Origin: Patescibacteria group bacterium
GTDB taxonomy: Bacteria; Patescibacteriota; Minisyncoccia; Phycocordibacterales; WO2-35-19
DNA: 64,000 bases
NCBI GenBank assembly: GCA_038064735.1
Contig: JBBTSI010000003.1
Span: 21,154 to 85,153 of the forward strand
Direction of reading: 5' to 3'
Shown here: positions 4,991 through 49,611 of the stretch, piece after piece
How positions within the stretch are numbered: position 1 is the stretch's first letter
Layout: every line of letters starts with the position of its first letter
Position numbers and translations under genes: made by a program
Notes under the pieces: model-generated
What the model was told of the DNA's origin: nothing
Seen by the model: the letters and a program-made list of their open reading frames with translations, nothing else
Database searches by the model: none

Positions 4991-5020
4991 GCAAAATCCG
5001 CCCTTACCGGCGGATTTTGC
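4991..5020. terminator. bidirectional rho-independent terminator between rnpB and tRNA-Leu
   Basis: Perfect 12-bp hairpin gcaaaatccgcc/ggcggattttgc with T-runs on both strands. Confidence 0.55.
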
Positions 5021-5105: not shown

Positions 5106-5277
5106 AATTTTTTGTCGTCACAAATATTTTTTAATGCTTGTCGTCACAGATAATCTCATTTTCGTCAAAATGAAATTTCCGCGACCCCGACTCGCTTATT
5201 TTTCTTGCTAGAAAAACATCGCTACGCCTCGGACTAGGAATAAAAAATCCAAAGCAGTTTGGATTCTTTATTCCTAG

Positions 5278-5350
5278 TCCGCCCACCAGGGATCGAACCT
5301 GGGACTTTCTCCTTAAGAGGGAGTTACTCTACCAGCTGAGTTATGGGCGG
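5278..5350 (-). tRNA. tRNA-Lys(CUU)
   Basis: Hand-folded: acceptor CCGCCCA/UGGGCGG, anticodon loop CUCUUAA, T-loop UUCGAUC. Confidence 0.65.
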
Positions 5351-5363
5351 AACAAAATTCATT

Positions 5364-6098
5364 TTAATGTAAATTTGTAGGTTTGGCAACATTTTTTAAT
5401 TTGTGCCATCTTTTTTCAATTAAACTGACTTGCGGAGCGATGTCTTTAAGTACTGCTTGTGTCCAGCCGTAAACTTCATATCGGTGGTCAGTTCCTTTTG
5501 GGACTTCAACTCTCATTGTTCCATAATAGAGATTATTTTTTTTATAATTACTACTTAATGGTTTTATGTAGCTTTTGCCAAATTTTTTAACTGGAATTCC
5601 TGTTAAATCTGACCAAAATTTTTTGATTTGTTTTTCTGATTGTTGAGGGTAAATATTTAATCTGGCTGTAAGTTTGTATGGAGGTATTTTAAATATTTTT
5701 TCAACCCATTTTACCCAAAATAAAATTAAATAAGGATCAGAATTGGTCATTTGAAACATTTTGGTTTTGCTGCCCTCTGCCCAATATAATGCCGACCCAA
5801 ATAGACGATAGGTTTCTTCGGTTATTGGTTTTTTTATTTCCAGTTCTGCTTTTTCTATAATAATTGAAACTTCTTTTTCTCTCCTTTGTTTTTGGCAGTA
5901 TTCTCCAGAAGTGAGCATGTGTATTTGTTTGGTATACAATCTCTGCCTGTCTTTGGGCAACAAGGGGACACCTTTAAGCCACAAGCTAAGTGTACTTTTT
6001 GGTATTTTTAGTTTTTTAGATATTTGCCCATAACTCATTCCTTTTTTTCTTAAAACTTCTGCGGGTTCTTTTTTTAAATTTTTATTTACTTCCTCCAT
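5364..6098 (-). CDS. HTH domain + LAGLIDADG-like (single-motif) homing-endonuclease-like protein
   Basis: N-terminal MSYGQISKKLKIPKSTLSLWLKG helix-turn-helix; LFGSALYWAEGSK resembles a LAGLIDADG motif; 14 nt upstream of and co-oriented with tRNA-Lys. Confidence 0.45.
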   Translation of the reverse strand: MEEVNKNLKKEPAEVLRKKGMSYGQISKKLKIPKSTLSLWLKGVPLLPKDRQRLYTKQIHMLTSGEYCQKQRREKEVSIIIEKAELEIKKPITEETYRLFGSALYWAEGSKTKMFQMTNSDPYLILFWVKWVEKIFKIPPYKLTARLNIYPQQSEKQIKKFWSDLTGIPVKKFGKSYIKPLSSNYKKNNLYYGTMRVEVPKGTDHRYEVYGWTQAVLKDIAPQVSLIEKRWHKLKNVAKPTNLH

Positions 6099-6191
6099 AC
6101 CATAGACTATATCACATATAGTCTATGGTCTAAATAAAAAATGTGGATAAGTTTTTCAAAAAGATTTTATCAAAAAATATAAGATAGGGTT

Positions 6192-6947
6192 TTATCTGAA
6201 GTCGTCGGTGAAAAATTCGTAACCGCCGATGAGTACCGGAGTGGAGAGGAAGTACCAAATAATGACGTCGTCGAGTGGGAAAACTTTGCCGAAAATATAA
6301 GTTTTGAATAAATATTCTCCCGGCCACCACCAACTGCCAACGATGAGAGAAATGATTTCATAATAGAAAAATATTAAAGCGAAAAATAGAGTTGGCAAGA
6401 TTACTTTTTTCATAAGGGCAGGTTTGTTCCAGAAAATTATAATTGCCGGTATGAACAAAAGCGGAATGGAAATTGAAAAATAATTTAGAGTGACCAAATC
6501 TTTGTTTATGAAAAAAATCGTATAAATCGTGGCGGCGCCAAAAATATATATCGCGGTGAGCAGTTTGAGTCGCGGTGATATTTTTTTGCTTGAATCTTTG
6601 TCTACGAAATATTCATAAAAGGAGAGAACCCATAAAAAGTTTAAGAAAGCGAAAATCATATTTTCAATTGGGATAAGTCCGAATGGCCGTATGATGACCG
6701 ATTGTACGTCCCAGACGTCTGCTAAACGGGCACAAAGCTCAATAGCTGGGGCTATGATAATAGCTGTAGTTAAAGAAAAGATGAGTATTTTTAGTTTTGA
6801 TTTTTTGAGCCAGAGCCAATTGGTCAGGGCCGGTGGAACCAAAACTAAAATAATAGAGATTAAATATGTTGGTTTAAATATAAAAACAAACAATCCCGCG
6901 ACCAGAACATAACCAAGGAGTAATAATATTTTTTTATTTGAACTCAT
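6192..6947 (-). CDS. polytopic integral membrane protein, unknown function
   Basis: Start set at internal ATG (MSSNKK) because the longer ORF would overlap the tRNA-Leu 3' end; about 8 predicted TM helices. Confidence 0.5.
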
Positions 6948-6951
6948 ACTT

Positions 6952-7037
6952 TGGTGCTCGGGGCGAGACTTGAACTCGCAAGGCCTTGCGGCCAAAGGAT
7001 TTTAAGTCCTTCGTGTATACCATTCCACCACCCGAGC
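6952..7037 (-). tRNA. tRNA-Leu(UAA), CCA encoded
   Basis: Perfect cloverleaf: acceptor GCUCGGG/CCCGAGC, anticodon loop CUUAAAA, variable arm GGCCGCAAGGCC, 3' ACCA in the DNA. Confidence 0.8.
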
Positions 7038-7128
7038 AGTGATTTGTCAAGTCTATAAAATTTCTCAACAAATGAGGCCACGGTGAGAATCGCACTCACG
7101 CATATTCCTTTTGCAGAGGAACGCCTTG

Positions 7129-7863
7129 CTACTTGGCTACGTGGCCTTTATGAAAATCTATGATTTTCTTTACTGTTTTATCAATGTTTACTGGTCTGGC
7201 TTCAAAGTAATCATTGAACGTTTTGTATTTTCTCATAAAAAAAGTATTATGACTAGCTCTTTTGTACATTAGTTTGAATAGCTTTATAGAATCTTTATTA
7301 TTGAATATGAGCTGAAATGACCTGTTGCTTTTATAAATTCTCCCATTTTCAATCTTTTCGTTTGCCAATACAGTGTTCATTTTTTCCAAAAATATCTTAC
7401 TCCCGCTTGTAAAAAATGTTCTAATTCTTTTTATGATTATTTTACCAGTGTCGCTTATCGACTTTTCAAAATAAATACAACCATCACCATCAAAATATCC
7501 TCTTATAAAATGATTTAAATATTTGTTTGGAATATTAGGAAACTGCACAGTTAGAGATTTATTTGGATATAAACCATGTTTAATAAGATCATTATAAATT
7601 TTATGATTACCGATTTTCAATGTATAGAAAGTTTTACCCTTTAAGAATAACGATTTATTTTTGGTTATGTTGTGTTCCGAACCCATCATTTTTTTGATTC
7701 GTTCTGGAGAATCTTTGTCTGTACTTGTGATAGATAAATATAAAGCTCTAATATAGTCGCAATTTATTAATGTGCCGTCAGCATATACATAACCTAGTAC
7801 ATAGGCCATATTTGGAGACCATTTATTAAAAAAATTTTCGTTTAATTTATGTTTTATACCCAC
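7129..7863 (-). CDS. LAGLIDADG homing endonuclease, double-motif
   Basis: Two dodecapeptide motifs [11 protein letters not shown] and [12 protein letters not shown]; free-standing, 91 nt upstream of and co-oriented with tRNA-Leu(UAA). Confidence 0.7.
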
Positions 7864-7914
7864 CCTATAATTATAAGTGGTAATAAAGTATACTGCAAAA
7901 AGGTATGTTGATAA

Positions 7915-8253
7915 CTACTGGTGCTCGTTCAAAAGTTCATCAATCCTTTGGCGGTTGTGTTCGCCGGCGTCTATACAAAACTCTATCCTTGGAACGAAAC
8001 CAAAAGATTTTTTACTCATCACAAATTGACGGAAATCATTGCAACGCCGCTTGGCAAATTCTAAAGTGGCCTCTTCTTTTTCTATTGGTAAAACAGTGAA
8101 ATAAATAATAGCCCTTTTGCCTTTGTTGAGGATTTCAGCTTTGGTAATGGTTAAAAGGGAATCTTTGTTGGATTCCACTAAAAAGTATTCAGCTGCGAAT
8201 TTGGCCAGCAGGGAAGTTTGTTTTTCATCTTTAAATTTAATCGGAGTTTTCAT
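7915..8253 (-). CDS. rbfA: ribosome-binding factor A
   Basis: 112 aa; LLTITKAEILNKGKRAIIYFTVL matches the RbfA core; immediately downstream of infB (conserved infB-rbfA order). Confidence 0.7.
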   Translation of the reverse strand: MKTPIKFKDEKQTSLLAKFAAEYFLVESNKDSLLTITKAEILNKGKRAIIYFTVLPIEKEEATLEFAKRRCNDFRQFVMSKKSFGFVPRIEFCIDAGEHNRQRIDELLNEHQ

Positions 8254-48851: not shown

Positions 48852-49158
48852 CTCCGCGGGTTGGATTCGAACCAACGACCAATCGCTTACATAGAATCTC
48901 CTATTACTAGAAGTATGGACTATATCATCCCCATGTCTTTTGATTTAGGGGCGAGGGGCTTCGAACGTGAAATAAACACGTCCTACTCCATAAAGGATAG
49001 TCTCTACACCTTCCCTGACTTTTGTCTGGGCTTGGCTCGGGATTGCCCGCTTTTTAAAGCTTGGGTTTCCCCGAATTCACCTCGTTTTTCATCCAAAATT
49101 TCTTTTGGAAGCTGCATTATAAATACAGGCGACTGCGCTACCGCTGCGCCACCGCGGA
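48852..49158 (-). tRNA. tRNA-Asn(GUU) interrupted by a 235-nt group I intron in the anticodon loop
   Basis: Exons: 5' UCCGCGGUGGCGCAGCGGUAGCGCAGUCGCCUGU (49158..49125), 3' UAAGCGAUUGGUCGUUGGUUCGAAUCCAACCCGCGGAG (48889..48852). Spliced anticodon loop CUGUUAA, U1-A72 and G73 as in E. coli tRNA-Asn. Confidence 0.7.
48890..49124 (-). mobile_element. group I intron, subgroup IC3-like (Azoarcus/Anabaena tRNA-intron type)
   Basis: P7 strands AGACUA / UAGUC; near-identical matches to the Azoarcus core: CGAGCCAAGC, GAAGGUGUAGAGACUA, GUGAAUUCGGGGAAACC. 5' splice site after U (U.G with IGS GCAG); last intron nt G. Confidence 0.75.
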
Positions 49159-49167
49159 GCTTAATGA

Positions 49168-49461
49168 TTATTTATTTTTCAAGTTACAAATCTCTTTCGG
49201 GATTTTTGTGATCTCATCATGGACTTCCATATGACAATTCGCACAAAGCAACACACATTTGTCTATTTCTTTGCGAAGCCTTTCCCACGAACGTGTTAAA
49301 CCCTTAGAAGACATATCGAAGTCTTTGTTTTTAGGATTTACATGGTGGAAACTCAATGCTCGTGAGCATTTATTGTAACCACATATCGCGCATTTGTTGC
49401 CTTTATAAGATCTAGCCATTTCACGCAGTTTTATTCTTCTGCGTTTAACAGCCATAACCAT
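49168..49461 (-). CDS. HNH endonuclease
   Basis: CAICGY...HHVNP...CANCHMEVH (HNH zinc-finger nuclease motif); stop codon 9 nt upstream of the intron-bearing tRNA-Asn; start uncertain (49461 or upstream 49548). Confidence 0.65.
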   Translation of the reverse strand: MVMAVKRRRIKLREMARSYKGNKCAICGYNKCSRALSFHHVNPKNKDFDMSSKGLTRSWERLRKEIDKCVLLCANCHMEVHDEITKIPKEICNLKNK

Positions 49462-49611
49462 ATACTTTGCTCGATCGGCATAAGTCCTTGTCTCTTTTCT
49501 TATTTTGGTATACACAACATAAGTATACCACATAAATTTAAAGAACATTGCTATTGTAGCAAAAATCTATACGGTTGCAATAACGAAAATATATTTGGTA
49601 TACTTATATGT

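Follow-up and report, generated by a model that had tools for sequence, protein, structure and literature searches.

We found that a 64,000-nt stretch of the genome of a Patescibacteria group bacterium (contig JBBTSI010000003.1, positions 21,154 to 85,153; hereafter the window) carries three genes of homing-endonuclease type, each of which borders the 5′ end of a particular tRNA gene and reads in the same direction. Two of them, an open reading frame (ORF) with an N-terminal helix-turn-helix (HTH) domain (ORF1) and a double-motif LAGLIDADG gene (ORF2), precede the intron-less genes for tRNA-Lys(CUU) and tRNA-Cys(GCA), respectively, and the third, an HNH gene, precedes a tRNA-Asn(GUU) gene that is split by a group I intron. 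We consider it likely that these are three independent selfish cassettes, each tied to one tRNA gene of this Paceibacteria-like genome. Sequence comparisons support a distinction between ORF1 and ORF2, which would act as free-standing cassettes at intron-less tRNA genes, and the HNH gene, which belongs to a family that is normally intron-encoded. To our knowledge, free-standing homing endonucleases have been well studied in T4-like phages and organelles and are poorly documented in cellular bacterial genomes, and we know only of LAGLIDADG genes in rRNA introns and, recently, of HNH genes in tRNA-Asn introns as having been described in Patescibacteria so far.

All three genes lie on the minus strand with the polarity of their tRNAs, as the original prediction from the sequence of the window had stated. 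That prediction had also placed the HTH ORF directly 5′ of tRNA-Lys, and 13 nt indeed separate its stop codon (ending at 5364) from tRNA-Lys(CUU), which starts at 5350. The distance of 9 nt between the HNH stop codon and the intron-containing tRNA-Asn(GUU) was likewise borne out, with a reading frame that is open over 49168-49548 and a likely GTG start at 49515. For the double-motif ORF, the reported 91 nt to tRNA-Leu(UAA) are correct, but the real partner had been missed, as tRNA-Cys(GCA), at 7074-7146, lies in between and is overlapped by 18 nt of the ORF. tRNA-Leu(UAA), the classic intron host that had been described as intact, is intron-less and without a role here. With eight tRNA genes in 64 kb, the chance that a given ORF would end within ~35 nt upstream of a co-oriented tRNA gene is ~0.002, and since this was seen for three of three ORFs the pairings are not due to chance. 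They recurred in every related locus examined. When hidden Markov models (HMMs) of the ORF1 and ORF2 families were run over all ORFs of 181 loci, every complete match abutted a co-oriented tRNA gene. Two large families (2161 and 795 detectable relatives) have their members at the 5′ end of a single kind of intron-less tRNA gene, and no endonuclease lies next to the five remaining window tRNA genes (Tyr, Trp, Leu-CAA, Leu-UAG and Leu-UAA).

Such pairings could in principle arise if tRNA clusters were merely tolerant hot spots for any mobile gene, with no recognition of the tRNA genes themselves, and the stretch from tRNA-Leu(UAA) to tRNA-Lys does vary among relatives from 28 nt to 2.6 kb, with an unrelated membrane ORF also inserted there in the window. 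A generic landing pad is nevertheless very unlikely in our view, as each family keeps a fixed distance to its tRNA across neighbourhoods (-18 nt for tRNA-Cys, 0 to +22 nt for tRNA-Lys), distinct paralogues pair with other tRNAs, and such neighbours are missing from the remaining five tRNA genes. Among the related loci, a paralogous LAGLIDADG ORF overlaps tRNA-Leu(UAG) by 13 nt (L030, 9846-10499), an ORF1-like ORF overlaps tRNA-Tyr(GUA) by 6 nt (L087, 300-932), and a weakly LAGLIDADG-like ORF ends 7 nt before tRNA-Tyr(GUA) (L029, 572-1411).

By its motifs and family models, ORF2 is a genuine double-motif LAGLIDADG enzyme, and nuclease activity is predicted. It matched Pfam PF14528 with 31.5 bits (cut-off 22.5), the phage family phrog_4645 annotated as endonuclease (E = 1e-43) and, as nearest solved relative, I-Tsp061I (PDB 2dch, E = 3e-4), and the acidic residues of its motifs LGYVYADG (D29) and IRGYFDGDG (D127) were both invariant in 29 aligned relatives, as was the whole D125-G-D-G stretch of the second motif. 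Four homologues on long contigs (49-67% identity) showed the same order of IF2, RbfA, ORF2, tRNA-Cys and tRNA-Leu(UAA), with the ORF2 stop codon 18 nt inside tRNA-Cys and one case of read-through, and a LAGLIDADG protein was found upstream of tRNA-Cys in five of five lineages. We used the C-terminal peptide of the 120 closest ORF2 relatives as a proxy for the neighbouring tRNA. At least 83 of them end in G[HVL]V[VA]K(W), which is the in-frame translation of the tRNA-Cys 5′ end (GHVVK-stop in 53, GVVAKW-stop in 11), and ~16 others can be traced to tRNA-Cys translated in a different frame or with a variant first codon, for a total of ~100 of 120. All five carrier lineages have retained the predicted promoter TTGCAG-17-TATAAT at a distance of 6 nt from the GTG start, which makes it part of the cassette. 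A consequence of a stop codon placed within tRNA-Cys (7129-7146 in the window, and in the same ~100 of 120 homologues) is that RNase P cleavage of a co-transcript would strip it from the message. This could limit endonuclease expression, in which case the tRNA itself may also throttle ORF2 through the stop-less message that RNase P leaves.

The tRNA-Cys gene next to ORF2 differs from that of the closest cassette-free genomes. A carrier locus (L008) and an empty one (L055) have IF2 proteins that are 94% identical and DNA that is ~86% identical up to the last codons of rbfA, where a ~770-nt insertion begins; homology is back just before tRNA-Leu(UAA). Despite the 94% identity of IF2, their tRNA-Cys genes are 67% identical. 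Across all five pairs of a carrier and its sister, tRNA-Cys identity was 63-70% and tRNA-Leu(UAA) identity 74-100%, with the window tRNA-Cys at 67-68% to those of sister genomes. Compared with one another, the carriers L001, L004, L008 and L011 were 84-92% identical in tRNA-Cys, 46-60% in IF2 and 74-78% in tRNA-Leu(UAA). Judged by these identities, the tRNA-Cys beside ORF2 is foreign to its host lineage and common to distant carriers, which is the pattern expected from co-conversion with ORF2. All five carrier alleles share an unusual D-loop (AGUAG or AGAAG) and the T-loop UGCRAWU, and this variant type was also present in 12 of 71 genomes with an empty site (p = 3e-4 by Fisher test, without phylogenetic correction). 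The variant tRNA-Cys(GCA), with AGUAG for AGUGG and UGCRAWU for UUCGAWU, was seen as well in L022, L030, L032, L041, L058, L076, L089, L097 and L099. The change looks like covariation at the 18/55 tertiary pair, from G18-psi55 to A18-G55. In non-carriers, such alleles could be resistant ones that remained after the endonuclease gene was lost.

We infer from these patterns that the mobile unit of ORF2 would consist of promoter, ORF and usually the tRNA-Cys allele, placed between rbfA and tRNA-Leu(UAA). By analogy with the free-standing endonucleases of phage T4 (PMC2988022), the enzyme would cut the resident tRNA-Cys region of a cassette-free chromosome. Repair would then copy the cassette from a carrier, with the rbfA 3′ end and tRNA-Leu(UAA) serving as homology arms, and the resident tRNA-Cys would be replaced by the variant allele of the cassette.

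In an attempt to determine how regularly these sites are occupied, we scanned with the window IF2, taking one genome per species, and obtained 80 loci, among which the order IF2, RbfA, tRNA-Cys, tRNA-Leu(UAA) ... tRNA-Lys, tRNA-Leu(UAG) was widespread. A tRNA-Cys gene could be identified in 71 of these loci, none of which carried ORF2; ORF1 occupied 1 of ~50 tRNA-Lys sites. The nearest IF2 relatives of the window are Zambryskibacteria-like genomes, and the closest two (IF2 73% and 71% identical) are without ORF1 and ORF2. In a neighbour-joining tree of IF2, the carriers were scattered and each had a cassette-free sister. ORF1 and ORF2 are therefore not conserved housekeeping neighbours of these tRNA genes, the outcome that would have spoken against the original prediction, and its proposal of free-standing endonucleases linked to tRNA genes is supported for both by specificity and polymorphism, and the tRNA genes themselves may be their targets. 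The HNH gene, for its part, shows presence/absence polymorphism too, in that it occurs with intron-containing and with intron-less tRNA-Asn. In all loci, the 900 nt preceding the genes of six tRNA species were searched with HMMs independently of frame, and no decayed endonuclease copies were detected at empty sites. Taken as a sequence pattern, the polymorphism supports mobility, or at least turnover. In one locus (L072, 8836-10076), the tRNA cluster, rbfA and the end of infB are repeated in inverted orientation within 1.2 kb, which may be either a true inverted duplication or an assembly artefact.

Homologues of ORF1 end 0-22 nt before tRNA-Lys(CUU) in eight of eight lineages, and they do so in at least five different neighbourhoods, which include pilus genes and tRNA-Arg, RecG, rpsO and the CCA-adding enzyme, and tRNA-Leu. 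The family is ~60% identical across lineages in which IF2 is ~47% identical. Of the label HTH-LAGLIDADG-like that had been given to this gene, the HTH part was recovered by Pfam, but no LAGLIDADG sequence model was matched: Pfam returned only HTH families for all 31 aligned members, a PDB profile search gave HTH matches and none to LAGLIDADG, and alignment of the ORF1 and ORF2 families by hhalign gave E = 0.67. What suggests a LAGLIDADG-like domain is the motif LYWAEGSK, whose E108 is invariant in the family, together with the predicted fold. No ORF1 relatives were found in viral contigs. The -10 element 6-7 nt before the start codon is present in L012, L015 and L016 as well, and the promoter-like sequence TTGCCA-17-TAAAAT at the 3′ end of the gene is conserved in these three and in L055. 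The latter, as a putative promoter of tRNA-Lys, probably explains the conserved C-terminal peptide VA(K/R)P.N of ORF1. We also considered whether a C-terminal 'ARPVN' motif reflects protein homology between ORF1 and ORF2, which it probably does not, as in ORF1 it coincides with the -35 element of the putative tRNA-Lys promoter. Another candidate was a tRNA-Lys allele that makes ORF1 carriers resistant; a variant of the 31-39 pair was found in 4 of 8 carriers versus 6 of 49 others (p = 0.03), a weak signal on which we do not rely. We propose that ORF1 inserted directly upstream of tRNA-Lys(CUU) in many neighbourhoods by recognising the tRNA-Lys gene region, and that the tRNA-Lys promoter within its last codons would make its deletion costly.

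An HTH domain, a tRNA promoter inside the 3′ end of the gene, strong conservation of the family relative to IF2 and the lack of decayed copies would also be compatible with ORF1, and perhaps ORF2, being domesticated host proteins that bind DNA and regulate the adjacent tRNA gene. A precedent is WhiA (DUF199), a LAGLIDADG-derived transcription factor encoded by a conserved housekeeping gene, in which two degenerate LAGLIDADG domains are followed by a C-terminal HTH. WhiA was the best structural match of the ORF1 model and, if the predicted fold is right, shares with ORF1 the combination of a LAGLIDADG fold and an HTH. In ORF1, however, the HTH is N-terminal, a single LAGLIDADG-like domain is predicted, its acidic residue is invariant and the distribution of the gene is sporadic. 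A regulator of an essential tRNA would not be expected to be absent from nearly all related genomes, the nearest included. Moreover, the acidic residue at the catalytic position of the ORF1 motif and both catalytic aspartates of ORF2 have been kept, and the replacement of the neighbouring tRNA allele in carriers is a signature of break repair. We therefore regard domestication as unlikely and favour selfish cassettes.

The third gene is associated with an intron that, by sequence criteria, is a group I intron at position 35/36 of tRNA-Asn. It matched Rfam RF00028 with 67 bits (gathering score 50) over model positions 1-253, its splice junctions are CUGU/AUU and ...AUG/UAA, and U35 of the 5′ exon pairs with a G of the guide sequence. 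ARAGORN called the joined exons tRNA-Asn(gtt) and, with default settings, missed the split gene. The HNH protein scored 22.1 bits against Pfam PF01844 (cut-off 21.4) and E = 9e-28 against phrog_2255, and residues C53, C56, H68, H69, N104, C102, C105, H106 and H110 were invariant in 20 sequences. The family comprises at least 953 relatives at ~55-80% identity. We assembled 86 HNH loci (80 metagenomic ones from the family alignment, five from protein look-ups, and the window) and located the tRNA-Asn halves in them by a nucleotide HMM. The HNH gene adjoins or lies within tRNA-Asn(GUU) in ~83 of the 86. The most frequent order, found in 56 loci, is 5′ exon, HNH gene, ribozyme core and 3′ exon, with the gene in the P1 loop of the intron; 15 more probably have the same intron-borne order, with a contig end or a weakly detected exon. 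In seven loci, including the window, the HNH gene is followed by a complete 5′ exon, an ORF-less intron and the 3′ exon. There were also one tandem pair, three cases of an intron-less tRNA-Asn beside the HNH gene, one divergently oriented intron-containing tRNA, and three loci whose arrangement we could not assign.

The window HNH protein is closest to intron-borne copies (75-81% identity), and the window intron is 76-92% identical to the part of HNH-containing introns that follows the ORF. In addition, the 3′ end of the window HNH gene retains a degenerate guide-sequence/P2 segment, the functional copy of which follows the 5′ exon. On these sequence grounds we take an intron origin as established, and the window gene as an intron gene that has been displaced; the earlier suggestion of an intron-homing remnant with its ORF outside the intron is thereby supported for a family that is intron-encoded in at least 56 of 86 loci. 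The HNH-outside arrangement is distributed over several distinct branches of the HNH tree and has differing junctions. In one syntenic locus (L173), exons and flanks are identical to those of the window and the junction is the same, with a different HNH gene (56% identity) and intron subtype. In intron-borne HNH genes, the bases of the conserved C-terminal ITQLP codons double as the internal guide sequence (GCAG) and P2. Such dual coding for protein and ribozyme can be seen in L017 (3380-3420), L102 and L104, and the displaced copy of the window has drifted to ITKIP. The window shares the -10 element before the HNH start with the intron-borne L102 and L104. We envisage that the intron lost its ORF in a rearrangement, by which the HNH gene came to lie 9 nt upstream of the 5′ exon, and that the HNH protein may still be able to mobilise the intron in trans ('collaborative' homing). 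As only 43 nt separate the HNH gene from the intron, the two would be co-converted. Two further arrangements were observed. L153 (139-1221) has a tandem of two tRNA-Asn genes that both contain introns, with an HNH gene in the first intron and no ORF in the second, which is possibly an intermediate towards the gene-outside-intron arrangement. In L019, L020 (2836-3324) and L161 (2326-2815), the HNH gene lies by an intron-less tRNA-Asn, either 70 nt upstream in divergent orientation or 100 nt downstream, and can thus persist without the intron.

In vitro splicing was recently reported for group I introns at position 35/36 of tRNA-Asn(GUU) of Patescibacteria, with HNH genes encoded in four of these introns (Nakagawa et al., mSystems 2026, PMC13011429). 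The window intron agrees with these in host gene, site after U35, phylum, HNH family (PF01844) and the failure of standard tRNA finders to detect the gene, which that paper also points out, and most relatives of the window HNH gene are intron-encoded in the way described there. The window intron differs in that its HNH gene lies 9 nt outside the 5′ exon and the intron itself is ORF-less. The intron part of our finding is therefore already published, and the HNH-outside order is a new arrangement of the published system. In that study endonuclease genes were sought only inside long introns, and most tRNA introns were judged to be without them and limited in transfer (PMC13011429); an intron of the window type would be counted there as lacking an endonuclease. 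An endonuclease gene just outside an ORF-less intron is also known from collaborative homing (F-CphI and the cyanophage psbA intron; mobE and the T4 nrdB intron; PMC2988022). In the published cases the free-standing gene heads into the intron, whereas the remnant in the window points to an intron-borne gene that moved out. The predominance of intron-encoded copies also bears on the idea that the three genes encode nucleases for defence against phages and are near tRNA genes by coincidence. PADLOC gave weak matches (a 'homing endonuclease' model for ORF2, E = 2e-4; an effector endonuclease for HNH, E = 9e-4) that would agree with it, but they represent generic nuclease domains, no adjacent partner genes of any defence system were found, and the HNH family is mostly intron-encoded. 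We consider a defence function extremely improbable.

Several observations weigh against mobile cassettes. The ORF2 tree of the five carriers is roughly congruent with that of IF2; ~10% of ORF2 relatives are associated with a tRNA-Cys of the ordinary type (GVVAKW-stop), which means that the variant allele is not the sole source of immunity; the tRNA-Lys alleles of ORF1 carriers are not consistently distinct from those of non-carriers; and a one-step route of the HNH gene across the 5′ exon could not be derived from the sequences. We also discarded an argument for horizontal transfer from protein identities alone, as those of ORF2 are only modestly higher than those of IF2 and RbfA and the five-taxon grouping is congruent with IF2. 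Pairwise ORF2 identities that group the five carriers roughly like IF2, and insertion junctions that are identical in all carriers, are what one would expect from a single old insertion in a Paceibacteria ancestor followed by many later deletions, with no mobility at present. Such a history would, however, require many independent precise deletions, given the occupancy of 0 of 71 and 1 of ~50 sites, and each loss would also have to swap the tRNA-Cys allele, as between L008 and L055 (67% in tRNA-Cys against 94% in IF2). Nor would it explain why distant carriers are more alike in tRNA-Cys (84-92%) than in tRNA-Leu(UAA) (74-78%), why all copies are intact and none decayed, or why ORF1 is found in at least five unrelated neighbourhoods. 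We hold old vertical insertions to be quite unlikely, and mobile cassettes remain our preferred explanation.

The features on which these comparisons are based are listed in Table 1. In all three endonuclease genes the -10 hexamer, extended by TG in two cases, ends 6-7 nt before the start codon. At this distance there is no space for a ribosome-binding site, and leaderless messages are therefore predicted, two of which would begin with GUG. Just downstream of tRNA-Leu(UAG) there is a hairpin of 12 perfectly matched bp with a T run on either strand (4991-5020); it resembles a bidirectional terminator and probably marks the end of the tRNA transcription unit. Between tRNA-Leu(UAA) and ORF1 there is a 251-aa multi-pass membrane ORF (6192-6947) without a family match, which starts 4 nt after the tRNA. 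In relatives, this spot is variable and holds between 28 nt and 2.6 kb of unrelated sequence.

Table 1. Endonuclease genes, tRNA genes and associated elements of the window (positions as in the 64,000-nt stretch; all on the minus strand)
Feature	Position	Strand	Remarks
ORF1	5364..6098	-	244 aa; N-terminal HTH and C-terminal domain with predicted LAGLIDADG-like fold; tRNA-Lys(CUU) always next
ORF1 promoter-like site	6106..6134	-	TTTAGA-17-TATAGT with TG; -10 element ends 7 nt before ATG
tRNA-Lys promoter-like site	5361..5389	-	TTGCCA-17-TAAAAT across final ORF1 codons and stop; tRNA-Lys lies 10 nt downstream; 10/12 positions match
tRNA-Lys(CUU), ORF1 partner	5277..5350	-	
ORF2, double-motif LAGLIDADG endonuclease (predicted)	7129..7863	-	244 aa; GTG start; last 18 nt and TAG stop within tRNA-Cys
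ORF2 promoter (predicted)	7870..7899	-	TTTGCA/TTGCAG-17/18-TATAAT; -10 element ends 6 nt before GTG start
tRNA-Cys promoter-like site	7155..7184	-	TTGATA-18-TAGATT inside ORF2 3′ end; 8 nt upstream of tRNA-Cys; 9/12 match, weak alone
tRNA-Cys(GCA), ORF2 partner	7074..7146	-	ARAGORN and Rfam (61 bits); variant allele, D-loop AGUAG, T-loop UGCGAUU
tRNA-Leu(UAA), intron-less	6952..7037	-	Conserved right-hand flank; homology to empty-site genomes restarts here
rbfA	7915..8253	-	Conserved left-hand flank; in empty-site genomes tRNA-Cys follows ~10-100 nt after rbfA
HNH endonuclease gene (predicted)	49168..49515	-	Open from 49548; family alignment favours GTG at 49515; CxxC..HH..N..CxxCH intact
Extended -10 element TGGTATACT	49522..49530	-	6 nt before HNH GTG start; conserved in intron-borne copies
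Degenerate guide-sequence/P2 copy ATCACAAAAATCCCGAAAGAGATTTG	49187..49212	-	3′ end of HNH ORF; counterpart ATCACGCAGCTTCCCAAAGAAATTTG in intron-borne homologue L102
tRNA-Asn(GUU) 5′ exon	49125..49158	-	tRNA positions 1-35
ORF-less group I intron, tRNA position 35/36	48890..49124	-	235 nt; 5′ exon ends in U, intron ends in G
tRNA-Asn(GUU) 3′ exon	48852..48889	-	

The closest functional analogues, apart from collaborative homing, are T4 SegB and the other seg/mob genes ('intronless homing', PMC2988022), which ORF1 and ORF2 resemble in that a free-standing gene lies among tRNA genes, in that flanking markers show, for ORF2, the pattern of co-conversion, and in that putative host-gene promoters lie in or next to the endonuclease gene, where deletion is disfavoured; T4 endonuclease genes are known to be retained through host promoters embedded in them (reviewed in PMC2988022). 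They differ in that SegB is a GIY-YIG phage enzyme that acts in co-infection, whereas ORF1 and ORF2 are of predicted LAGLIDADG-like and LAGLIDADG type, respectively, reside in cellular genomes of an uncultivated phylum and are each confined to the 5′ end of a single tRNA gene, into which one of them reads. LAGLIDADG endonucleases of Patescibacteria (Candidate Phyla Radiation) are known from rRNA introns and insertions, at least as Tsurumaki et al. (2024) are cited in PMC13011429 and PMC11809585. As far as these citations describe them, they share phylum and superfamily with ORF2, whose nearest solved relative, I-Tsp061I, is itself an rRNA-intron enzyme, and they are located in rRNA genes, whereas ORF1 and ORF2 are free-standing before intron-less tRNA genes. 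Within the incomplete coverage of our literature search, we found no paper on LAGLIDADG-type genes before intron-less tRNA genes in Patescibacteria.

More speculatively, and with the predicted nuclease activity, cleavage targets, direction of transfer and promoter roles all taken as correct, Patescibacteria might carry a class of 'tRNA-gene drive', in which free-standing LAGLIDADG-type families are each specific for one tRNA gene (Cys-GCA, Lys-CUU, Tyr-GUA or Leu-UAG). The enzyme would destroy the resident gene, and repair would install the endonuclease gene, a tRNA promoter and, for Cys, a resistant allele with D-loop A18 and T-loop G55. We regard this only as a tentative idea. Should it hold, tRNA allele diversity in reduced genomes would be shaped in part by selfish nucleases. 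The ORF2 cassette with its replacement tRNA allele suggests that, in a minimal genome, selfish elements can overwrite a tRNA gene that is essential and present in a single copy, and a tRNA promoter inside an endonuclease gene is a plausible retention device. The HNH gene appears to have moved repeatedly from the intron to a position just outside it, and surveys restricted to introns would then underestimate intron mobility. If so, and as the endonuclease gene can be located outside the intron, the published view of Patescibacteria tRNA introns as poorly mobile would have to be revised.

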